Shown here in pieces: positions 4,075 through 20,405 of a stretch of DNA of 64,000 nt. Source of the DNA: an uncultured Cytophagia bacterium (GTDB lineage: Bacteria > Zhuqueibacterota > Zhuqueibacteria > Residuimicrobiales > Krinioviventaceae); assembly GCA_964607755.1 (NCBI GenBank), contig CAZSMC010000018.1, positions 82 through 64,081 of the forward strand, in the 5' to 3' direction. The translations under genes were made by a program, and so were the position numbers. Every line of letters begins with the position of its first letter. Positions within the stretch are counted from its first letter, which is position 1. The notes beneath the pieces were generated by a model. The model saw only the letters and a list, made by a program, of their open reading frames with translations, did no database searches and had not been told where the DNA came from.

Positions 4075-4096
4075 ATATTTTTGAGTAAATAACACA

Positions 4097-4450
4097 AAGC
4101 AGAACAGGCGATCGCGTCTCGTTTTTATCGAGGCGAGGAAAGTCCGAACATCACCGGGCAGGGTGGTCCGTAACGCGGACCCGTCGTGAGGCGGGGAAAG
4201 TGCCACAGAAAACATACAGCCCCTCTTTGAGGGGTAACGGTGAAAAGGTGAGGTAAGAGCTCACCGCTTCAGTGGTGACACTGAAGGCATGGTAAACCCC
4301 ACCCGATGCAAGACCAAATAGGAGAGAAGAGGCGGCCCGTCTCGTTTGACTCTCGGGTAGGTCGCTCGAGGCGTCAGGACACTGGCGTCCCAGATAAATG
4401 ATCGCCACTTTGCCTGGCAAAGGACAGAATTCGGCTTATCGTTCTGCTTT
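4097..4450 (+). ncRNA. rnpB: RNase P RNA, bacterial type A.
   Basis: Universally conserved segments are present: GAGGAAAGTCCG(P4 5'), ACAGAAAAC, GGTAACGGTGAAAAGGTGAGGTAAGAGCTCACC, GGTAAACCCCACC, AGACCAAATAGG and CGGCTTATCG(P4 3'). The P1 ends pair (GCAGAAC/GTTCTGC), and the alignment to E. coli M1 RNA is essentially collinear. Confidence 0.92.
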
Positions 4451-4491
4451 GATTTCATATAGATGTTAGCCCTAAAGGGCGGTAGTGTGGA

Positions 4492-8039: not shown

Positions 8040-11000
8040 ATGAACAAGAAATTAGAACAGTTTTTAACAAAAATAATGGGCGGATCAAGCACTGAACGCG
8101 AGTTGAAACGCATCCGTCCCATGGTTGATCAGATAAACGAGTTCGCTGAAGAATATAAACAACTCTCGGACGATGAGCTAAAGGCTAAAACAAATGAGTT
8201 CCGCTATCGTCTGCGTACAGGAGAAACTCTGGACGATATTCTGCCGGAAGCTTATGCCGTGGTCAAAGACACTTGCCGCCGGTTGCTTGGAAAAAAATGG
8301 ATGGTCCGGGGCCAGGAAACCGAATGGAATATGGTGCCGTACGATGTGCAGCTTTTGGGTGCCATCATTCTGCACGAAGGCAAAATCGCCGAAATGGCTA
8401 CCGGTGAAGGCAAAACCCTTGTCGCGACTATGCCGCTTTACCTTAACGCTCTGGAAGGAAAAGGCGCCCACCTCGTTACAGTCAATGATTACCTCGCTCA
8501 ACGTGACTGTGAATGGATGGGGGAAATTTACAAGTATTTGGGATTGAGTGTGGCGGCCATTTACGGCGAGCAAGACCCTGAAGATCGAAAAAAGGCCTAT
8601 CAGGCAGATATTACCTACGGCACGAATAATGAATTCGGCTTTGATTATTTGCGCGATAACATGACCAGCGACGTCTGGTCGGTAGTGCAGCGCCCCCTCC
8701 ACTATGCCATTATCGACGAAGTTGACAGCGTACTTATCGACGAAGCGCGTACACCACTGATCATTTCCGGTTCTGTTGGTGCACCGCGGAATGTTTATAA
8801 CGAGCTCAAGCCCACAGTAGAAAGCCTGTACCGGAAACAAAAAGAGCTTGTAGACCGGCTCCTTCAGGAAGGCAAGTCGTTGCTCGACAAGGACGAGGAA
8901 AAAGCAGGATTGCTTATCCTTCGCGCCCAACGAGGGGATCCCAAAAATGAGAAATTAATGGAATTGCTTACCTCGGAATTTTGGGTAAAAAAATTGATCG
9001 AACGTATTCAGGGACAGTTTGAAGTCAACAAGGAAATGAATACCGTTGATCAGGAACTGTACTATACGATCGATGAAAAAAGTCATGTGGTCGATATTAC
9101 CGAAAAAGGACGTATTTTCCTGTCCGGAGGGCAGGCTCTAAATGTGGCTGATAAAATCAATCAGCTCGATGACCTGGATGATATGATTCATCATCTCAGC
9201 GAGCAGAAAGATCCATCCCAATATTTTACCCAGGATCCGATTACCGGTTATTGCAACGGTTTTACCCTGGAAGGCAAGTTGGCTCTGCTGAATATGAATG
9301 GTGAAATAACAGATAAAGAAATTGGTGCTCTGGACGAGCTGGATCAAAAATTGACAGCAATCTCCGAGGAAAGCCAACAATCATCCCAGGGCAAAAAAGC
9401 AGACAAAGGCGGCACGTGGCGAAAATATTACAATATCGCAAAAAAAATGGACAGCGCTGTTAATGGTTTATCTCCAGAAGGAAAACAGTTGCTGGCAAAA
9501 GGGATTTCAGATGCGTTGCCCAAAATAGTCGAAGCGTTCGACCTCGTACTCGCCAGGCTTCGGGAAATCGCGGATATTGACAGCGATGGCCGCCTGCCCC
9601 GTCAATTGATCGACGAACGCCGGAAATTGCAGCAGGCTTTTTTTCACAACGACAAACAATCCGGTTGTCCTGTGGGTTTGACAGAGCAGGGACGTATTGC
9701 CCTGCTGGCAGCTATGCTGGGCGGCAATCCGCTGGCCGTGCCAATGATCTTTCAGTTGGAAGACATGCTCAGCAGCTCCGATGGCATTGACGCTAAAAGT
9801 CAGGAGTATTTCGATTTTACTGACAATGGTTCTGCGATCTCTCACATAGCTGAAAAGGGCCGTATCCTTCTTTTAGGCGGCAACCCGGATTTATATGTGC
9901 TGCCCGACCGCAGCATGGTTGAGGAACGCGACCAACAAATTCAGCAGTTGCTGGACAAGACCCTTAATCAGGTGTCGTACGATTACTCGACTCGCGTTCA
10001 AACGGCTGAACAGCTCCAGGAAGATCTGCAAGCCATTCATCAGGCCATTGGATCGCAGCCCAAAGAAAAACGACCGACGTATTTGCGTCGATTCTATGAT
10101 GTCGATTATCGCGACAGGGTGACCAACGAGCCGCTCATGCGCGTGACAGATAAAGGCAAAGCATTTCTCGAAGATTTCAGTTCGCAAACAATATCCGTTG
10201 TTGAAAGGCTCAATGATAGTTTACATAAAAAGAATACCGGTGTTTTTAATATCCAAAATAACACCTTAACCGGGCTCGCAGACGATCAGCTTGACGAGCT
10301 TTTAGGCGATTCGTTTTATAAAATCAATCAGCAAATTGATTCGTGGAATGCGTCGCATTCTGCTGATGCAGACACTTCTTCAGTGAACTTACGCGAGCAC
10401 CTCGATGCTCATCTTGGCCAGGATACCGAATCTGCATCGAGTTTATCCCGGCAGTTTGAAGAAATTGAACGAATCGACCGGATTATCCGCAACGTGTTTT
10501 CAGCACTTGCCAGCAGCGACGTGACCAATGCTGAAAAACGCCGCATTTTGCATCGTTATTTCGAGGTTGACACAAACGACTTGGAAAACATTCAACCCAC
10601 GCCGGATTTGGATATTCGGGGCTTGTCCGAAACCGGGATGCAGCGTCTTATTGGCCGGGCTGCTGACCGCAATGAAGTGTCGGACCGGTTGATTCAACTT
10701 TTGGAAAATCCGGATACAGATCTGGAAAGTGTCTTTGAGATGCAACCGGATGGCTATCCGTCAAACCTGAAAGAATCAGCTCGCAGCCATCTGGTCGATG
10801 GATTACCTTATTATGAATATTCCAGCGGGCTGAAAGAATTCCGCGACGAAGTGCTGCAAATGAGCGCTAACAAAGTCAGTTCCGGCGCAGAGATGGAAAG
10901 CCTGGTTCCGAGAGAGCAGGTGCAGTTGAAAAAGAAAGGCATTGCCCTCAGCGACCGCGAATTGGGTCATTTGATTAGCAAAGCTCATGCGCCAAATACA

Positions 11001-14000
11001 GTGATTACACCTGAAGAAATTGAAGCATGGTTCCGGCTTCATTTTAATGAACTGCCGCGCCGGTATCTGGAATCGAAACGGGATCAGTTATGGCAGGATT
11101 ATACCAAAATCGAAGAGCGCGTACAAAACATTTCGCAATTGCTGCGCGCTTTTACATTATTCCAGCGCGATGTCGATTATGTAGTCAAAGCACCCGATGA
11201 AACCGAGATGCGCCGACATGGCGGACAGCGCGGTCACAAAGCGGTGATGATCGTCGATCAGTTTACCGGCCGTCTTATGCCAGGACGGCGGTTCAGCGAA
11301 GGTCTGCACGAGGCTCTGGAAGCCAAGGAAGGCGTTCAGGTGCAGGCAGAAACGCAAACGCTGGCTACCATTACGCTGCAGAATTTCTTCCGGATTTACG
11401 ACAAATTATCCGGCATGACGGGTACAGCAGAAACAGAGGCTCAGGAATTTTTCAGCACGTATGAACTAGATGTCATTGTCATTCCCACCAATGAACCAGT
11501 CATTCGCGATGACCATGACGATGTTATCTATCGAACTAGAAAAGAAAAATACGAAGCGCTGATTAACGAGGCGATAGAGTTGCATAATGCTGGCCGGCCG
11601 GTATTGATTGGTACAATTTCGGTGGATGTGTCTCAACATCTAAGTGACATGTTCACAGCACGGGGCGTACCGGTTGCTGATTGGTTAAAAAAAGGCGATG
11701 TCGAGAAACAACTGGAATCCGGAAAATTTCATACCGTGCTCAACGCAAAGTATCACAAAAACGAAGCAGAGATCGTCGCCAAAGCAGGTTTGCCCGGCGC
11801 GATTACCATTGCCACAAATATGGCAGGACGTGGAACGGACATCAAGCTGGCGCCCGGTGTGCGCGAAAAAGGCGGCCTGGCTATTTTAGGATCAGAAAAG
11901 CACGAGGCCCGGCGAATCGACCGGCAGCTTCGTGGCCGTGCCGGACGTCAGGGTGATCCAGGATCATCCAGGTTTTATCTTTCACTTGAAGATGATCTGA
12001 TGAGACTCTTTGGTTCGGACCGGATTACCAATATTATGACCCGTGTCGGTTCGATGGAAGAGGGCGAACGCATCGAACACCCACTGATCACAAAGTCTAT
12101 CGAACGTGCGCAGAAAAAGGTTGAAGAGCGCAACTTTGAAATCCGAAAACAACTTTTAGAATATGATGATGTTCTTAACGAACAACGCAAGATCATTTAT
12201 AAGCGCCGTCAGAATTTGCTCGGCTTTGCTGAACCAGAAGACCTGGTCGAAGCAAAGATAAAGCGCTTTATGGGCGATGAGAATGACCGGGCTACCTGGC
12301 ACTTGAACGAGATGGTAGAGAGTCTGAAAAACTTTTTCGGCGTTCATCCGCCTTTTAACGTAGATGAGCTCGAAGCGCAGGATGCGAATGAAATCCGGAA
12401 CCAGGTTAATGAATGGGTTGCTGCTCAAAGTGCGCAGGAACGCCATCGTGAACATCTGCGGGAACGGCACAGAATTTACGGATATTGCGATATCAATGAA
12501 ATTATTCGCGAACTCGTTCATTTTAAAATACGGCTACACGGCGGCACCTCTGGCGATACGGCAAAGTGGAATATCGAAGGCTTGCGATTCGAACTGGACC
12601 GTATCTTTGGTGCAGTGCCGGAATGGCTGCAGGAACCGCTCGAAAACATGTCAGCTCAAGAGGCTGAAAAACGCCTGGTTGAATGGGCGCAGAATTATTA
12701 TGCTCAACTTTTTGAAACCTATCGTGATAAAATCGACCGGATTTTATTCCGCAAACTCGATTTTAAAAAAATGCTGACGATTTTCGTTCAGGGATTGGCT
12801 GCCCAGTATCTGCCAGAAAGTGAGCCGGCAATTAACTGGAATATCAATGACTTTTTTGACCAGCTCGAACGGGTATTTGAAACCCGGCCGGAAATCGGCA
12901 TTAACGAAATACGGACGATTTCCTACAACCGATTGCTGGAAAAATTGACCGATTGGGTAAACCAGCTCGATATTCCGCAACGTGAAGCAGACTATTACCG
13001 GCATCGCATCATCGGACATGTGTCTCCGCAAGGATTTGTCGATATGATCGTACTCTCTGTTGTGCAGCACTTTAATGGCAGCTTGAACGTGAAAACCTTA
13101 TCTCCGGATTTGAAAAAAGCATTAGCAGATGTATTTGATACTGAATTCGTAATCGAGCCGGAGGATAACGAACTGCAGCCGATAGGTCAACTTTTCCGGC
13201 AGGCCCGGCAGTCGTATGCATCGTTTATCGATGAGAATATGGACGTTTACGATGCTGTAACCCTGGCAAAAGCGGATAATGTGGAAGCCCTCGAAGCCGC
13301 TATTACAGCTAAAACAAATTCGGTTTTTGATCAGTATGCCGATACCTCCCAGAACCGGAAAAAACTTTACCGGGACTTTGGCAATATGTTTATGGAAAAA
13401 CCAGAGTTGGCTCTTCCGCAAGCTCAGGATACCCAGGCTATTGCTGCGTTTAAAGAGGATTTAATTTCGTGGGGACATGGTTTTTATAAAACCTATTCGG
13501 ATCACGTAGACCGGATGTATCAAGAACGCCTGTCTAACGAAATTGTGTTTGATACGGTTTTGAGCATGATCGATGATGCAGCTTATACCATGATCCGGGA
13601 TATTTTAGGCCAGGGAGATGTTCTTGATCAAAACCAACTCCGCCGGTTGGAAGCTGAAAGCCGGTTGGTTTTCCGCCGGTCTCCGCGACTGGTCGACGAT
13701 AGCGTTGAAGGCATGAATCCCAACGATGTCATGGACAAACTCAGTAGCTGGGCTCAGGACCTGTATCACAAGCGGGTTAATGAAATCGGTAAAAATCTGG
13801 TAACCCGTTATGAACGGATTCACATTTTGCAGAAAATTGACACTAACTGGCGTCAGCATCTCAGCGGTATTGATGAATTGCGCGAGGGAATTGGCCTGCG
13901 TGGGTACGGTCAAAAAGATCCTCTGCTGGAATACAAGCGAGAAGCGTTTGACATGTTTCAGCGCACTGTCGATACAATTAATCGTGAAACAGTGGGTGCC

Positions 14001-14276
14001 CTGTTCAAATTTTTTGATGTTGGCGGAGAAGTGGAAGAGCAACAAATGCGGCGCAGTGAACCGCAAAGCTTTACCACATCCCACTCCCGGGTGCAGCAGT
14101 TCAAAACGCTCGCTGCAAACAAAAAGCAGGGAAAAAAGACACCCGCACCAGCCAACCGGCCTGGCCAGCCCGCTCGGCAAAAAACTGTGGTGAAAAGCAA
14201 AGAACCTGGCCGGAATGATCCCTGTCCATGCGGCAGTGGGAAAAAATATAAAAAATGCTGCGGCAGAAATGTTTAA
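8040..14276 (+). CDS. secA: Preprotein translocase ATPase SecA, giant form (2078 aa).
   Basis: The translation contains NBD1 ([20 protein letters not shown]...TPLIISG), PPXD ends ([17 protein letters not shown] ... [10 protein letters not shown]...[32 protein letters not shown]), NBD2 ([35 protein letters not shown]), the HSD/HWD ([16 protein letters not shown]) and the C-terminal zinc motif [14 protein letters not shown]. These blocks are separated by about 700 and 420 aa of non-homologous sequence. Confidence 0.9.
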
Positions 14277-14378: not shown

Positions 14379-14849
14379 TTGATGAATAAAAAACTTTTCG
14401 ACGTATTGGAGCTTGTTCTTAAGGAAATCCGCGAAAATGTATTAGGCGAAGTACAACTGCAAACGATTATCGATATGCTTTCCGAACATGGTTTTTCTGA
14501 TGATGAAATATCTCTGGCTATGTCCTGGCTGTTAAGCAGTGGCGATAACTTGCAGCAGTTGGTTGGGTCTACCCCAAAAGGACTGCCCCGGCCGCTATGG
14601 CGAGACCTGAACGATGAGGAACGGGAAGCCATATCACCAAGTGCGTATAGTTTTCTTTTTCACCTGCGCGAACTCGATTTGCTGAGTGATAATAAAATGG
14701 AACAAGTCATTGACCAGGCTGTTCGTTTAAATACATACTATCTCGATGTGGATGACATGAAGGAACTCATTACGGCAGTCGTGCTGGATTATGAGGATAA
14801 TGCCTCCAGCGGATATTTTTCATTTTTATCCACATCTGCTCCTCAATAA
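14379..14849 (+). CDS. smg: Smg (DUF494) protein.
   Basis: It is 156 aa and shares the LFDVL...GF...WL pattern with E. coli Smg. It sits immediately upstream of a topA-like gene, as in the canonical smg-topA arrangement. Confidence 0.6.
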   Translation: MMNKKLFDVLELVLKEIRENVLGEVQLQTIIDMLSEHGFSDDEISLAMSWLLSSGDNLQQLVGSTPKGLPRPLWRDLNDEEREAISPSAYSFLFHLRELDLLSDNKMEQVIDQAVRLNTYYLDVDDMKELITAVVLDYEDNASSGYFSFLSTSAPQ

Positions 14850-14871: not shown

Positions 14872-16983
14872 ATGGGGCAATTTTTTTTAGTGGTAGAGTC
14901 CCTTGGTAAGCAAAAGACTCTGCAAAAAATATTGAATGAAAAGGCAACAGTGATCTATGCCGGACCGCCTCAGAGCGAGTCCGGCGATTTTGCCTTGAAT
15001 GGGGATGCTAATGTTTTTCCGAAAGATTTGACCAGACTGACACGCCAGGACACGGTCTATTTTGCCACCGATCCCAATCTGGTGGGTGAGAAAATAGCTG
15101 CGGCAGCAAAAGATAAATTCCCTGACAATGTCCAGTGCCGGCGTGTGCTGTTAATGAGTTTTACGCCACATTCAGTAAATCATGCTCTGAAAAATGCTGC
15201 CCCTCTTAATGATAAAGGCGCAAAAGCGCACGAGCTTCGCGAGCGGCTGTCCCGGCTTTTTGACCGGACATTCCGGTTTGTCCTTGATGTCCCGTCTTTG
15301 AACAAAGTTCTCCGTCTGGAAACTTTACTCCTTCTTGATTTTCTCGTCCAGGCGGAGATAACTGCCCGGACATCATGTTTTGAGTCTCACTGGACAATCG
15401 ATGTCGAACTAAAAGGGCGCAACAGCAGATTTTGGGCGCCGCTCACAAACGTGAAAGATCAGGACGCTATCTTTTCTGATCCCCACAGTGCCAAAGCGTG
15501 CATCATTGATTTGAAGAAACAGGATTTCAAAATCACCTCAACAGCACCAAAAAGCAAATTCATTCAGCCTCCGCCTCCTTATGTGACGGTCACGCTTTTG
15601 CGCGATGCTGCCCGCGATCTGGGATTTGCACCAGCACAAACAATATCAGTCGCACGATCTCTATACGAGGGTGTGGACATTGGCTTGACATCACCTGTAA
15701 GTTTGATTACTTTTCCATTTACCGCAGAGTACGCCTGTCATCACGAGTGCGTTCAGGCAGTTCGTGAGTTTGTGCTCAATAATTACGGCGTGGATTATGT
15801 GTCTAAACAACAACGGTACAAAAGTGTTTCTGCTTTATCAGTTGCTATCACCCCGGTGGAAATAAAACGAACGCCAAAAAAAGTCCGCAAATACCTGACA
15901 GAACCGCAATATAAATTGTACGAGCTCGTCTGGACAAAAACGGTCTCTTCGCAGATGCGAAATGCTGTAATTAAGCATAATGCGATCGAATGCAGCGCCG
16001 GGCCGGATGATCGATACCAGTTTTTCTTCGAGGATATAAAGATTGATTTTAGAGGATTTCTGCAAGTGGATAGTCATCCGGTTTCATGCACATCAGCAAC
16101 TGGTGAAAATCTGAGAAAAAACCAGCCGCTTGAATGCCTGGGTTTTCGTTTGAACAAAAATGATACTATTCGGACAGAATCGTTCACCGTTGCCAAAGTG
16201 TTTGACATATTGTATCACACCAGCCTGGGACAACCTGAAAATTATGCGGACATGTTGAGCGCCCTTGCCGATTGTCATTTCATCACCATAAAAGACGGCA
16301 GCGTTCATGTCACCACAACCGGTGAAGAAGCGTGCCGGATCATGCACCAACAGTTGCCCCATATTTTTAGCACAGAATTTGCCAAAGGGATCGGAAAGCG
16401 AATAGACCTTGTTTTGCGTGGGCGTAAAAAAAGTGAGGACGTTTTTCGTCAATATTCAAATATTATTGATACAGCCATTCAAAAAATAGCGTCGCAAAAA
16501 CAGGTGTGTCCCTTATGCGGTGGAAAGCTCATTCTCCGCGAATCGGAAACATCACAGCGGGTTTGTGAGTTATATCCTTATCAATGTGACTATGTTGAGT
16601 CAATTACAGATGGAAATTCCACGCAGGTTTGTGATAAATGCGGAGCAGAAATGGTTGTTCGCAACGGCCGCTACGGACGCTTTTTAGCCTGTTCGCGGTT
16701 TCCGGAATGTCATTTCACAAAACCGTACACTATCAATGTAAAATGTCCTTCCGATGGATGCGATGGGGATGTAATTGAAAGATATTCTGCAACCGGATAT
16801 CTGTTTTATGGCTGCTCCAAATATCCGGCCTGTAAATTTGCCAGTTGGCTCAAACCAGTTAATGTTGCTTGTCCGTACTGCGGTCACACATACATGGTTG
16901 AAAAACATCAGGACCAGGATTGCTTGCTTTTTTGTCCTAACTGTAAGAATACTATGAAAGAAACCATAACAACAGCTCAATGA
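14872..16983 (+). CDS. Type IA DNA topoisomerase I homolog with an apparently degenerate active site.
   Basis: The N-terminal Toprim is present (LVVVESLGKQKT; ATDPNLVGE against E. coli ATDLDREGE). The domain III core aligns (PPPPYVTVTLLRDAARDLGF...ARSLYEG...SLITFPFTAE against [20 protein letters not shown]...AQRLYEAGYITYMRTDS). Four C-terminal Cys4 topoisomerase-type zinc ribbons follow. The catalytic Tyr and Arg positions read F and F, and D113/E115 equivalents read N and V. Confidence 0.7.
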   Translation: MGQFFLVVESLGKQKTLQKILNEKATVIYAGPPQSESGDFALNGDANVFPKDLTRLTRQDTVYFATDPNLVGEKIAAAAKDKFPDNVQCRRVLLMSFTPHSVNHALKNAAPLNDKGAKAHELRERLSRLFDRTFRFVLDVPSLNKVLRLETLLLLDFLVQAEITARTSCFESHWTIDVELKGRNSRFWAPLTNVKDQDAIFSDPHSAKACIIDLKKQDFKITSTAPKSKFIQPPPPYVTVTLLRDAARDLGFAPAQTISVARSLYEGVDIGLTSPVSLITFPFTAEYACHHECVQAVREFVLNNYGVDYVSKQQRYKSVSALSVAITPVEIKRTPKKVRKYLTEPQYKLYELVWTKTVSSQMRNAVIKHNAIECSAGPDDRYQFFFEDIKIDFRGFLQVDSHPVSCTSATGENLRKNQPLECLGFRLNKNDTIRTESFTVAKVFDILYHTSLGQPENYADMLSALADCHFITIKDGSVHVTTTGEEACRIMHQQLPHIFSTEFAKGIGKRIDLVLRGRKKSEDVFRQYSNIIDTAIQKIASQKQVCPLCGGKLILRESETSQRVCELYPYQCDYVESITDGNSTQVCDKCGAEMVVRNGRYGRFLACSRFPECHFTKPYTINVKCPSDGCDGDVIERYSATGYLFYGCSKYPACKFASWLKPVNVACPYCGHTYMVEKHQDQDCLLFCPNCKNTMKETITTAQ

Positions 16984-18014
16984 CTCTTACGCCATCGCAC
17001 ACATTTCAACATTGGATTCCGCGGTTTTTGAAATATCTGCGAGTGCAAAGGAACGCCTCTAAAAACACTCAAGAATCCTACGAACGTGATTTAACACTTT
17101 TTGTTCATTACCTGGCGGAACGCACGCACAAGCAGGTTCCAACTCTGAGTGCTTTTACGCGCGAAAATGTTCGTGGATATCTTTCCTTTTTATTCGGTGA
17201 AAAATACCTGTCGCGCAGTGTGGCGCGAAAACTTGCCACCCTGCGTTCGTTTTCAAAGTTCCTTATTCGCGAACAGGCAATTCAACAGAATCCAACGCTA
17301 AACATCGCCTCGCCTAAAATTGAAAAGCGTCTCCCCCAATATTTAACCCGGGATGAAATGAAAAAACTTTTACAATTACCAGATGTGGCCACATTGGAAG
17401 GGTTGCGGGATTTTATCATCCTCGAGCTGTTTTATGCCACAGGTATGCGAGTGAGCGAAGTAGCGCAACTAAAAATTGATAACATTTTTCCTGACGAGGG
17501 CACCATCAGAATCAAGGGCAAAGGCAGCAAAATCCGACTGGTGCAGATGGGAGAAAAGTTGAATCAGCATATCAAGGATTATCTGTCAAAATGCGCCCAT
17601 TTTAGAAATGTGGAGCCGTCTGTTGTACAAGACGACCAAAGTGAATATTTATCGAATTATAGCAAAGACAACCAACAGCAGGAATTCACAGATTATTTGT
17701 TTGTTAATAAAAATAGGCAGCCGTTTACCAGACATCAAATAGCTGCGATCGTTTCTTCTTATCTTAAACGGGTCACTGATGTGAAAAAAGCGCATCCTCA
17801 CACACTGCGGCATTCATTCGCCACTCATCTTTTGAACAAAGGGGCCGATCTCATGGCAGTTAAAGAAATGTTAGGTCACGAAAGTTTGAGCACAACCCAG
17901 ATTTACACGCACGTCTCTGCAGATCATTTAAAGCGTATTTACAAGGCATCTCATCCGCGAGATGCTCAGACAAACAGTTCCCCACCCAAAAAAGGAGGTG
18001 ATAAAAAAGTATAG
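16980..18014 (+). CDS. Tyrosine site-specific recombinase XerC/XerD family.
   Basis: It has an N-terminal SAM-like core-binding domain and the catalytic R...HxLRH...Y residues (GMRVSE; HTLRHSFATHLL; TQIYTHV). The ATGA overlap with the upstream topA-like stop indicates translational coupling. The stop is TAG. Confidence 0.8.
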   Translation: MTLTPSHTFQHWIPRFLKYLRVQRNASKNTQESYERDLTLFVHYLAERTHKQVPTLSAFTRENVRGYLSFLFGEKYLSRSVARKLATLRSFSKFLIREQAIQQNPTLNIASPKIEKRLPQYLTRDEMKKLLQLPDVATLEGLRDFIILELFYATGMRVSEVAQLKIDNIFPDEGTIRIKGKGSKIRLVQMGEKLNQHIKDYLSKCAHFRNVEPSVVQDDQSEYLSNYSKDNQQQEFTDYLFVNKNRQPFTRHQIAAIVSSYLKRVTDVKKAHPHTLRHSFATHLLNKGADLMAVKEMLGHESLSTTQIYTHVSADHLKRIYKASHPRDAQTNSSPPKKGGDKKV

Positions 18015-18073: not shown

Positions 18074-18394
18074 ATGAGAATCGAATTCACCGCACGGCAC
18101 TTTAAACCCTCTCAACGACTGAAAGAATTTGCCCAGGAGGAAGTGCAACGCCTGAAAAAGTATTACGACGGAATTATTGAAACAGAAATCATACTTGATT
18201 ATGAAAGGCAGGACCAGATCGCAGAAATAATCATCAAAGTCAATGGACAACGTATGACCGTCGTTGAACGAACCGATGATATGTACAAATCCATTTCTTT
18301 TGCGGTGGATAAGCTTGAGCGCAAGCTCCGGCGATATAAAGAAAAACAACGGCAATTTGATAAAGAGCGAATCTCAGAAAATATAGAGGAATAA
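18074..18394 (+). CDS. hpf: Ribosome hibernation promoting factor (HPF/RaiA, sigma-54 modulation protein family).
   Basis: It is 106 aa with MRIEFTARHFKPSQRLKEFAQEEVQRL...; RBS GAAAGGAGG lies upstream. Confidence 0.8.
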   Translation: MRIEFTARHFKPSQRLKEFAQEEVQRLKKYYDGIIETEIILDYERQDQIAEIIIKVNGQRMTVVERTDDMYKSISFAVDKLERKLRRYKEKQRQFDKERISENIEE

Positions 18395-18403
18395 TGAACA
18401 ACC

Positions 18404-18440
18404 AGGCCTGGGGCGCCGCCTCAGGCCGTTATTTCATATC
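18404..18440 (+). terminator. Possible intrinsic terminator after hpf.
   Basis: Stem GGCCTG/CAGGCC with an 11-nt GC-rich loop is followed by GTTATTT. It is a weak T-tract. Confidence 0.35.
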
Positions 18441-18451
18441 TGTGAGTCATC

Positions 18452-19489
18452 ATGTTAAAAACAGAAAAAGTTAAAAAATCGTTAGAAGATATTATCAAGC
18501 TGCCCGAGCCACGTATTTTATCCTTTATCAAAGTGCGTACCTTATACGAAGATATGAAAGACAGTTTGTCACTGCGCATTTTGAACGACAAACACAGCTT
18601 TGAACGAAAAATCCGTGAAAAAGAAATCAATCGCCCGGGACTGGCGATGAGCGGATTCGTCGAAGTGTTCACCTACTGGCGCGTGCAAATTATGGGCAAT
18701 ACAGAAATTGGCTTTTTGAATACGCTGCACGGTAAAAGGCGGCTTGATGCGATTCAAACAGTTCTCGGTTTTGATCTTCCATGTATAGTGGTGACAAATG
18801 ATAATAAAGTTCCTCAAGAATTTCTAGATATTGCTAACCGTAACGGCATCACTATTTTCTCATCCCCTTTGAACACAACAGTGGTTAGCCGCCATTTAGG
18901 CGAATATCTGGAAGCCAAGTTTGCCCCGCACATGATTCTTCACGGCACTTTGGTTGATATTTACAGCGTTGGCGTTCTTTTTGTTGGACCGGCCGGGATC
19001 GGAAAAAGTGAACTGTGCCTGGACCTTGTCGAGCGCGGACATCAACTGGTTGCCGATGATGTTGTCGAACTGAAACGCGTCGGAATCCATCAATTGCAAG
19101 GGTCATCGCGGCAGTCGAATTCCTACCATCTTGAAATCAGGGGGCTGGGTATAATCGATGTGTTCAAGATGTTTGGTGTGAGCGGAATCCGGGGAAATAA
19201 GGACGTTCATGTTATCGTAAAGCTGGAAAAATTTTCCACTGATAAAAAGTATGAACGTCTTGGCCTGGATACGAAAATCACCGAAATCATGGGTGTGGAA
19301 ATTCCCCTGGTTGAAATTCCCATTGTGGAAGGAAAAAATATTCGGATAGTCGCCGAGGCGATAGCTCTCGATCACAAGCTGAAACAGATTGGCATTAACC
19401 AGGCTGAGCAATTTCAGCAAAATCTGATCGAAAGACTGCAGAAAAAACAGCCGCCGCTCGTTGAGTATGAAAGTGAAACTGAATTATGA
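18452..19489 (+). CDS. hprK: HPr kinase/phosphorylase.
   Basis: It carries the P-loop GPAGIGKSELCLDLVERGHQLVADD and the HprK C-terminal domain pattern. It follows hpf, as in rpoN-type regulatory operons. Confidence 0.85.
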   Translation: MLKTEKVKKSLEDIIKLPEPRILSFIKVRTLYEDMKDSLSLRILNDKHSFERKIREKEINRPGLAMSGFVEVFTYWRVQIMGNTEIGFLNTLHGKRRLDAIQTVLGFDLPCIVVTNDNKVPQEFLDIANRNGITIFSSPLNTTVVSRHLGEYLEAKFAPHMILHGTLVDIYSVGVLFVGPAGIGKSELCLDLVERGHQLVADDVVELKRVGIHQLQGSSRQSNSYHLEIRGLGIIDVFKMFGVSGIRGNKDVHVIVKLEKFSTDKKYERLGLDTKITEIMGVEIPLVEIPIVEGKNIRIVAEAIALDHKLKQIGINQAEQFQQNLIERLQKKQPPLVEYESETEL

Positions 19490-19875
19490 AACAAGGTGTG
19501 ATTATCGCTCACGGTTCCCTGGGTCGTGCATTAATCGAGGCGGTTCAGGTTATTATGGGCACTGATGACGGCCTTTATGATATCTCGGTTGAAAATATGT
19601 CAGCCAAACAGATTTATGACCGCCTCGCTTCAATAGTCAAAGTCCCGCAATCCGATAAAGATGGTGTAGTCGTTATGGCATGCCTGCGCGGTGGGAGTTC
19701 GTGGAATGTGGCATCAGCAGTGGCTGAGGGGAAAAAATATGTGCGCGTGATAAGCGGTGCCAATTTGCCCATGATTTTGACATTTCTCACAAAACGCAAT
19801 TTCTGCTCAATGGATCAACTCTTATCTGAAATGCGCAACGAAGCTGTAAAAGGTATCGCTCTGTTAAAAAAATAA
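19486..19875 (+). CDS. PTS EIIA component, mannose/fructose family.
   Basis: The sequence MKQGVIIAHGSLGRALIEA...GGSSWN is the EIIA-Man fold signature, including the phosphorylatable His in IIAHGS. The ATGA overlap indicates coupling to hprK. Confidence 0.75.
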   Translation: MKQGVIIAHGSLGRALIEAVQVIMGTDDGLYDISVENMSAKQIYDRLASIVKVPQSDKDGVVVMACLRGGSSWNVASAVAEGKKYVRVISGANLPMILTFLTKRNFCSMDQLLSEMRNEAVKGIALLKK

Positions 19876-19904
19876 TTCATATTGGAACGGTAACAAGGAG
19901 AAGC

Positions 19905-20405
19905 ATGTTTATGCCATTGGTCATGGTCAGAATTGATGACCGGTTGATACACGGTCAGGTTGTGGTGGGCTGGGGTAATGTGATTAAACCGGACCGCATT
20001 TTACTCGCCAGCGACGAAGTTGCCAATGTGGAATGGCAAAAAACGATTTATCTTTCAGCAGTCCCAGAAAACCTGAAAGCATCTGTGCTGACATTGGATG
20101 AAACTATAGAAAAACTCGAAAACAATGCCTTTGAAGGAGAAAGAGTCCTTTTGCTTGTCGATAATCCAAAAAGCGTTGTTTATCTGGTTGAACATGGAAT
20201 TGAAATAAAGGAAGTGAATGTGGGCGGCATGCATTTTCGGCCGGGTAAAAATCAAATTTCCAATTTTATTTTTGTCAATCAAGAGGATATCGATAATTTC
20301 AAAAAACTGAGAGAAAAAGATATTTATTTAGAAGGCCGGGATGTTCCAACCCGCACACCAATTGATATTGCCGAATCGCTTGGAATTGATGGCAAAGACT
20401 CGTGA
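19905..20405 (+). CDS. PTS EIIB component, mannose/sorbose family.
   Basis: RIDDRLIHGQVVVGW...VNVGGMHFRPGK aligns closely to the E. coli ManX IIB domain. No IIC/IID permease genes follow. Confidence 0.75.
   Translation: MFMPLVMVRIDDRLIHGQVVVGWGNVIKPDRILLASDEVANVEWQKTIYLSAVPENLKASVLTLDETIEKLENNAFEGERVLLLVDNPKSVVYLVEHGIEIKEVNVGGMHFRPGKNQISNFIFVNQEDIDNFKKLREKDIYLEGRDVPTRTPIDIAESLGIDGKDS

Follow-up and report, generated by a model that had tools for sequence, protein, structure and literature searches.

Type IA topoisomerases are considered to be both universal and essential, and the bacterial enzyme TopA is an antibacterial target; exchange of the catalytic Tyr for Phe is the standard way of inactivating these enzymes. 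Escherichia coli also carries a small zinc-ribbon protein, YrdD, whose function is to our knowledge still unknown. The protein described here, of 703 amino acids (aa), is encoded in a 64,000-nucleotide stretch of contig CAZSMC010000018.1 (the window), in the slot that topA occupies between smg and xerC. It belongs to a family that is a relative of TopA and YrdD and is a pseudoenzyme. Because the same state is found across a whole branch of the uncultured phylum KSB1, the gene is not a sequencing oddity, and its sequence marks it as a conserved, predicted non-enzyme descendant of TopA.

In the structurally characterized enzymes of E. coli (4RUL/1ECL) and Thermotoga maritima (2GAI), a Toprim domain is followed by the toroid domains II to IV and by C-terminal Cys4 zinc ribbons, and the window protein has the same domain order. 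The TopA ribbons bind single-stranded DNA (ssDNA) mainly by pi-stacking from an aromatic residue on strand beta3 and contact RNA polymerase; in the E. coli enzyme, R724, F725, and Y728 stack on ssDNA (PMC4678816). Within the body of the enzyme, the cytosine at position −4 of the cleaved strand is recognized by R169, R173, and Y177 (PMC3467081). YrdD is a four-ribbon protein that is reported to bind Zn(II) and Fe and to show Zn-dependent ssDNA binding, as cited in PMC4678816. The gene cluster dprA-smg-topA is widely conserved and is cotranscribed in Neisseria, its significance being an open question (PMC5817196). Engineered Tyr-to-Phe mutants, such as T. maritima reverse gyrase Y851F (7FSF) and Drosophila Top3beta, resemble the window protein in having a Phe at the nucleophile position; they still bind nucleic acid and cannot cleave it, and the hydroxyl-less Top3beta mutant of PMC12140118 is an example of type IA inactivation. 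These are single laboratory substitutions, whereas the KSB1 family carries dozens of natural changes in the active site and groove that are fixed clade-wide. The literature searched held no description of a full-length family of bacterial type IA topoisomerases that is catalytically dead in nature, and the Zhuqueibacterota/KSB1 paper does not mention topoisomerases.

The window protein matches the Pfam family Topoisom_bac (PF01131) with 135 bits against a cutoff of 35.1, and Zn_ribbon_Top1 (PF01396) three times (9e-28). Its Toprim region (PF01751) scores 16.6 bits, below the threshold of 23.1, and PF01751 is absent from the precomputed Pfam annotation of the protein, whereas every canonical match has it. 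The NCBIfam equivalog of bacterial TopA, TIGR01051, returns 234.3 bits against a cutoff of 456.4. An AlphaFold2 (AF2) model built on a 34-sequence alignment reached a predicted local distance difference test score (pLDDT) of 86.3 and a predicted template modeling score (pTM) of 0.72. Foldseek matched this model to full-length E. coli TopA with an E value of 2.6e-43 and to the 67-kDa TopA fragments (1ECL, 1MW9, and 6OZW) with target-normalized template modeling scores (TM-scores) of 0.83 to 0.86, and the reverse gyrase Y851F structure (7fsf) is among the matches. The confident model and its structural matches therefore indicate that the type IA toroidal fold of domains I to IV is retained while the chemistry is predicted to be lost. 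A reading made from the letters of the stretch without database searches (the sequence-only reading) had taken the protein for a type IA homolog with a Toprim domain, a domain III core, and four Cys4 ribbons; this assignment holds, with the Toprim domain below threshold in Pfam.

The active site was located by phmmer alignments to three solved TopAs, from Streptococcus mutans (6OZW), T. maritima (2GAI), and E. coli (9GDA/4RUL). In all three independent alignments LITFPFTAE falls opposite the catalytic LITYMRTDS, and ATDPNLVGE falls opposite the DxDxE motif, A(S/T)D(P/L)DREGE; MAFFT gave the same placement when the protein was aligned with canonical TopAs and with the E. coli enzyme. A residue table built from a MAFFT alignment with E. 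coli TopA and 13 canonical TopAs gives, in E. coli numbering, the substitutions D113N, E115V, R169E, D172S, Y177R, R195L, Y319F, and R321F, together with D323A, H365S, T496N, and R507C. The 13 canonical proteins are invariant at the compared sites, with the single exception of R507K. In the window protein Tyr319 corresponds to Phe281, Arg321 to Phe283, Asp323 to Ala285, His365 to S323, and R195 to L149, and E9, K13, and D111 are retained. The protein thus differs from TopA in lacking Tyr319, Arg321, Asp323, His365, and two of the three Toprim acidic residues. It also lacks the Arg, Asp, and Tyr residues that bind the G strand, and as the cytosine-recognition residues are among those altered, the G-strand groove has changed as well as the chemistry. 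The SAGRVQS segment, which comes next after the cytosine-recognition motif, is unrecognizable. Relaxation of DNA through a 5'-phosphotyrosyl intermediate is therefore an activity that this sequence predicts to be absent. The sequence-only reading had placed Phe at the Tyr319 and Arg321 positions, a Toprim triad broken at D113 (Asn) and E115 (Val), and a SAGRVQS segment beyond recognition. The exchanges at 319 and 321 stand by sequence, profile, and predicted structure, and the profile alignment against type IA families that it had called for again puts Phe at the Tyr position; the alignments agree on the broken triad, with D111 kept, and the SAGRVQS arginine (R195) is a Leu.

A scan of genome contigs with HprK placed the window among metagenome-assembled genomes (MAGs) labeled candidate division KSB1, with a best identity of 66%. 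The gene order secA-smg-slot-xerC-hpf-hprK-EIIA-EIIB is kept in 26 related loci. Within the clade, the slot holds a degenerate TopA-like open reading frame (ORF) of 670 to 760 aa, or part of one at a contig end, in loci L002 to L006, L008, L012, L013, L019, L022, L024, and L025, and a Toprim-less version in L007 and L009. It is empty in eight loci (L011, L014, L016, L017, L018, L020, L021, and L026), where xerC follows smg after 24 to 180 nucleotides (nt), reflecting clean deletion of the gene on at least three branches. Slot states were assigned to loci covering the slot, L001 and L010 starting downstream of it and L015 being cut by a contig edge that leaves just the C-terminal end. A canonical TopA occupies the same slot in L023 and in all six of the sister-lineage proteins that were looked up, beside a normal SecA of about 1,055 aa; these sister lineages are labeled KSB1, Zhuqueibacterota, or Caldithrix.

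In a neighbor-joining tree of XerC, HPF, and HprK, the loci with a dead or absent slot gene form a monophyletic clade. One of its subclades is uniformly dead-but-present, and the other mixes full-length, truncated, and absent genes with at least three losses. The tree and the slot states together show that loss of the active site happened a single time, when the clade arose, and that the gene was then kept, trimmed, or deleted by branch. The clade is also marked by a giant SecA of about 2,000 to 2,090 aa, which is encoded in every one of the 20 clade loci reaching into secA and coincides exactly with the dead or absent TopA slot; in sister lineages with canonical TopA, SecA has about 1,055 to 1,064 aa. 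Locus L013 (JAACEJ01) and loci L002, L005, L009, L010, L015, L018, and L019 (CAY.. and CAZ.. accessions) are publicly labeled "Actinomycetota bacterium" or "uncultured Cytophagia bacterium." The MAGs seem to be taxonomically mislabeled, as synteny and identity clearly put them in the KSB1 clade.

An exhaustive HMMER search over 1.84 billion representatives retrieved the degenerate family as about 27 clusters at 50% identity, each 29 to 37% identical to the window protein. Arg321, the SAGRVQS arginine (R195), His365, and the GRPSTYA motif are kept in none of 26 family members, and the family has lost 77 positions at which the 11 canonical TopAs of a regional alignment do not vary, including R321, H365, R195, D113, E115, and R507. 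At the Tyr319 position a 23-member alignment shows Tyr 11 times, Phe eight times, His twice, Cys once, and a gap once, and further relatives have Asn or Ser. Comparison with orthologs in related genomes, which the sequence-only reading had suggested, shows these losses again in each relative that occupies this slot, and the losses of the window gene are therefore not due to chance.

Single members of the search results add detail. P0253 keeps a full DxDxE motif (ATDPDREGE) and P0247 has ATDPDVQGE, with Gln at E115, both having Glu or Asp at position 9; both lack Arg321 (Lys in P0247), SAGRVQS, and His365, and their active-site motifs read GLITFILTDT and GLISYFKTNA, respectively. The two sequences look like intermediates and suggest that loss of the DNA-cleavage half preceded that of the metal-binding half. 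Two near-canonical TopAs from unrelated clusters also depart from the catalytic motif: P0271 reads GLITFMRSDS, with Phe at the Tyr position and with Arg321, SAGRVQS, and GRPST kept, and P0295 reads GLVTYIHTGS. They may be independent inactivations or sequencing errors.

The slot gene is under purifying selection. The ratio of nonsynonymous to synonymous substitution rates (dN/dS) is 0.115 for L024 versus L006 (735 codons) and 0.165 for L012 versus L019 (592 codons), and neighboring genes give values of 0 to 0.12. Uninterrupted ORFs of 650 to 760 aa persist in the roughly 27 clusters even though these share only about 30% identity. Compared with canonical TopA, the degenerate protein evolves two to three times faster, and across the clade the slot gene is 27 to 35% identical, versus 43 to 75% for secA, smg, xerC, hpf, hprK, and EIIB. 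Mean pairwise identities within the family and among the 11 canonical TopAs show where the constraint lies: they are 0.20 and 0.62, respectively, for domain I (Toprim), 0.22 to 0.23 and 0.49 to 0.54 for domains II/IV, 0.37 and 0.63 for domain III, and 0.43 and 0.49 for the zinc ribbons. By this measure the ribbons are held almost as tightly as in the real enzymes and are the best-conserved part of the family. The cysteines of ribbons 2 to 4 are invariant, 83% of members retain those of ribbon 1, and the aromatic ribbon residues F604, F645, and F656 are invariant in the family. The Toprim-less versions of 506 and 572 aa keep the ribbons as well.

The ribbon array links the family to YrdD. In phmmer alignments the segment G599-R-Y-G-R-F604 aligns with GRFGKY of E. 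coli TopA, so that R600, Y601, and F604 lie opposite the residues R724, F725, and Y728. E. coli YrdD (b3283, 180 aa, annotated "putative DNA topoisomerase") aligns with aa 544 to 688 of the window protein with 37% identity over 158 columns (BLASTP E value of 1e-28), end to end across all four Cys4 ribbons. Like the window gene, yrdD lies directly downstream of smg, in the order smf-smg-yrdD in E. coli K-12, where topA is elsewhere at b1274, and its product is likewise non-catalytic. The two differ in that YrdD has lost the N-terminal topoisomerase body, which the window protein keeps in degenerate form (703 aa versus about 180 aa); the window protein is thus not a ribbon-only small protein, and the 506- and 572-aa relatives also keep domains II to IV. 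The YrdD lineage, the Enterobacteriaceae, is unrelated to KSB1, and the two reductions are therefore independent. Given the shared smg slot and the ribbon alignment, the KSB1 family is, at the level of sequence, a second, independent case of an smg-linked TopA becoming a predicted non-catalytic zinc-ribbon protein, at earlier stages than YrdD. The KSB1 series, from full length through 572 aa and 506 aa to absence, looks like intermediate stages of the path to YrdD, and would supply the missing intermediates for an origin of the YrdD type (full length, Toprim-less, ribbon-only, lost).

The window protein is thus probably the positional descendant of the ancestral KSB1/Calditrichota topA, a non-catalytic derivative that binds ssDNA or RNA polymerase and stands at a stage between TopA and YrdD. 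In this scheme the DNA-cleavage chemistry would have been lost at the base of the giant-SecA KSB1 clade, the gene being kept afterwards for a non-enzymatic protein in which the TopA toroid would still fold and be followed by the four Cys4 ribbons. The 5'-phosphotyrosyl intermediate could not form with Phe as the nucleophile, the scissile phosphate has lost the Arg, Asp, and His by which it is positioned, the Mg-binding acidic cluster is broken, and the residues holding the G strand (R169, D172, Y177, R195, and R507) are replaced. Selection preserves mainly the ribbon array and part of domain III. By analogy with the TopA and YrdD ribbons, we infer that the protein binds ssDNA or RNA polymerase; it would bind ssDNA without cutting it, possibly at RNA polymerase or in unwound, negatively supercoiled regions, which may be the same still-undefined job as that of YrdD. 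The sequence-only reading had arrived at a non-catalytic protein of topoisomerase fold that retains its zinc ribbons, and this remains the best reading; the dN/dS values and the intact ORFs speak against a pseudogene. The roles that it had named, as a regulator, a decoy, or a structural partner, may apply. A clade-wide, selected, non-catalytic full-length TopA would mean that the scaffold has a second, non-enzymatic use, above all in its zinc-ribbon tail.

Several observations weigh against this reading. The Tyr persists in about half of the family, and Lys stands at the 321 position in four members (P0243, P0247, P0251, and P0260), so that residual or altered chemistry may persist in some members. 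Domain III is moderately conserved and the full toroid is present in most members; the N-terminal body may hence be important as well, and a model based purely on YrdD-like ribbons would be incomplete. Repeated truncation and loss could mean that the gene is only weakly useful. Finally, about 540 kb of clade DNA surrounding the slot yielded no further type IA gene, and none of the canonical TopAs (about 360 listed by three homolog searches, eight of them traced) could be tied to a clade genome, the clade genomes not having been searched genome-wide for topA and the sole scan of a genome collection having used hprK.

The conservation of the body raises the question of whether the whole toroid is the functional unit. 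The protein would then be a clamp or competitor that does not cleave and that acts, as a regulator or a dominant negative, on the real topoisomerase I, on transcription sensitive to supercoiling, or on recombination by XerC. All four N-terminal domains are present in most members, with a toroid like that of TopA predicted confidently; domain III is conserved, as are the hinge motifs (PPxPFTT, LYEG, GLIT, AIRP, and LYxLIWxRxxASQM); and the gene is translationally coupled to xerC. Yet the groove residues that would hold the G strand are replaced, domains I, II, and IV are poorly conserved (0.20 to 0.23), and the Toprim-less versions and complete losses show that some of the clade can do without the toroid. 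The coupling to xerC and smg was inherited from the canonical enzyme and is hence unspecific. A function of the entire toroid is for these reasons rather unlikely, although it has the most in its favor after the descent toward YrdD set out above.

The same truncations and deletions, together with the greater divergence of the slot gene than of its neighbors, would also fit a gene in slow decay, a redundant copy of topA with no function of its own that is heading for deletion. The N-terminally truncated forms in L007 and L009 and the direct succession of smg and xerC in eight genomes on at least three branches are what such a course would produce. Against it stand the low dN/dS in two independent close pairs, the uninterrupted ORFs in clusters of such low mutual identity, the near invariance of the sixteen cysteines and the ribbon aromatics, and the confident AF2 model, as a neutrally drifting ORF would not survive such divergence. 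Slow decay is accordingly an improbable account of the family.

A non-catalytic descendant of TopA raises the question of where, if anywhere, the clade genomes encode a real relaxing enzyme. Because eight related genomes live with an empty slot, we infer, as the sequence-only reading had supposed, that a separate, active type IA topoisomerase is encoded elsewhere in the clade genomes and performs DNA relaxation. Within the window a second topoisomerase was not found by Pfam scans of the large ORFs or by tblastn with canonical TopA. The eight traced canonical TopAs all come from other lineages. P0148, P0197, P0183, P0168, P0169, and P0187 lie in the same slot in sister lineages with a SecA of normal size; P0394, a relative of the best-scoring canonical match P0255, lies in a topA-gid-xerC context in another MAG; P0007 lies in a dprA-topA-gid context in MAG CAYNII01; and P0002 lies in the order dprA-smg-topA-xerC-hslVU in a Nitrospiraceae MAG. 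Comparison of accession numbers of the degenerate proteins MBN2412372.1 and MDZ7721288.1 with those of ten KSB1-labeled canonical TopAs revealed none that were close. It is very doubtful that the giant-SecA KSB1 clade has no catalytically competent type IA topoisomerase at all, a view based on an ancestral topA that is dead, truncated, or deleted in every sampled genome and on the lack of a replacement in the roughly 540 kb and among the listed canonical TopAs. If it were true, negative supercoiling would be managed without topoisomerase I or III, and these bacteria would break the rule that every cellular organism has a type IA enzyme. Least credible of all is that the slot protein is itself a still-active topoisomerase with a rearranged active site, since the complete fold, the retained E9, K13, and D111, the canonical Tyr in half of the family, and a Tyr six residues downstream of the dead position (in TAEYACHH) are set against the loss of the 77 canonical-invariant positions, a score far below the TIGR01051 cutoff, and the finding that this Tyr287, which the sequence-only reading had named as a possible nucleophile, is unique to the window sequence. 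Tyr287 was rejected as an alternative nucleophile on this ground, and no Tyr is conserved in the degenerate family beyond those that are conserved in the canonical enzymes also.

In several unrelated lineages (L100 and L102 to L105) topA adjoins gid/trmFO, and a Joint Genome Institute (JGI) protein of 1,247 aa, P0401, is apparently a fusion of TopA to a GIDA/FAD-oxidoreductase domain. Public databases name proteins of the degenerate family "DNA topoisomerase," "DNA topoisomerase-1," or [quoted passage not shown] Essential-gene and metabolic inventories of KSB1 made from genomes would miscount them as topoisomerase I. Neither the window protein nor P0390, its twin at NCBI, had a record when looked up by exact sequence.

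The coordinates of the gene, its motifs, and its neighbors are collected in Table 1. The TopA-like ORF begins after a 22-nt gap downstream of smg, and its TGA overlaps the ATG of xerC as ATGA at 16980-16983, in agreement with the placement in the topA slot and the translational coupling to xerC that had been read from the sequence. All 20 KSB1 loci long enough to show it, and the outgroups as well, have smg directly 5' of the slot, and the shared order is aminotransferase IV-nusB-secA-smg-(topA)-xerC-hpf-hprK-EIIA-EIIB.

Table 1. Positions of the TopA-derived gene, its motifs, and other features (window coordinates unless a locus is named)
Feature	Position	Strand	Size or residues	Basis or remark
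Class A bacterial RNase P RNA	4096-4454	+		Rfam RF00010, 314.7 bits
Giant SecA	8040-14276	+	2078 aa	about twice normal size
smg (DUF494), conserved upstream partner of topA	14379..14849	+		Pfam PF04361, 6.8e-15
TopA-derived, predicted catalytically dead protein	14872..16983	+	703 aa	family matches, AF2 model, Foldseek
N-terminal Toprim strand FLVVESLGK	14884..14910	+		alignment; E9 and K13 equivalents kept
Degenerate Toprim acidic motif ATDPNLVGE (canonical ATDPDREGE)	15064..15090	+		D111 kept, D113 Asn, E115 Val
Degenerate cytosine-recognition motif AHELRERLSRLFDR (canonical AQQARRxLDRxVGY)	15226..15267	+		R169 Glu, D172 Ser, Y177 Arg
Active-site motif SLITFPFTAE (canonical GLITYMRTDS)	15700..15729	+	Phe281, Phe283, Ala285	
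LSVAITP replacing AHEAIRP	15835..15855	+		alignment; His365 and Glu366 equivalents lost
Four Cys4 zinc ribbons	16507..16944	+	aa 546-572, 587-613, 625-654, 667-691	
xerC-type tyrosine recombinase	16980..18014	+		Pfam Phage_integrase, 5.7e-45, and SAM-like N-terminal domain
hpf (ribosome hibernation factor)	18074..18394	+		homolog in related loci carries Pfam Ribosomal_S30AE
Strong terminator-like hairpin	18405-18427			after hpf, the last gene before the hairpin
HprK/P, EIIA, and EIIB genes	18452-20405	+		
Toprim-less slot gene of locus L007	6709-8424		572 aa	domains II-IV very degenerate, ribbons kept
Toprim-less slot gene of locus L009	7038-8558		506 aa	domains II-IV very degenerate, ribbons kept

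The giant SecA of the window contains two large insertions, at roughly aa 323 to 1015 and 1400 to 1830, which have no Pfam match. A topoisomerase module hidden in these insertions was considered and rejected, as Pfam gives SecA domains only. Downstream of the hairpin, HprK/P is followed only by mannose-family phosphotransferase system (PTS) EIIA and EIIB genes, with EIIC and EIID not seen nearby. The clade as a whole keeps this arrangement, which suggests that the PTS serves in regulation and not in transport. No tRNA genes were found in the 64-kb window, and PADLOC gave no match for anti-phage defense. The RNase P RNA gene lies between a gene for a CT398-like zinc-ribbon protein and recJ.

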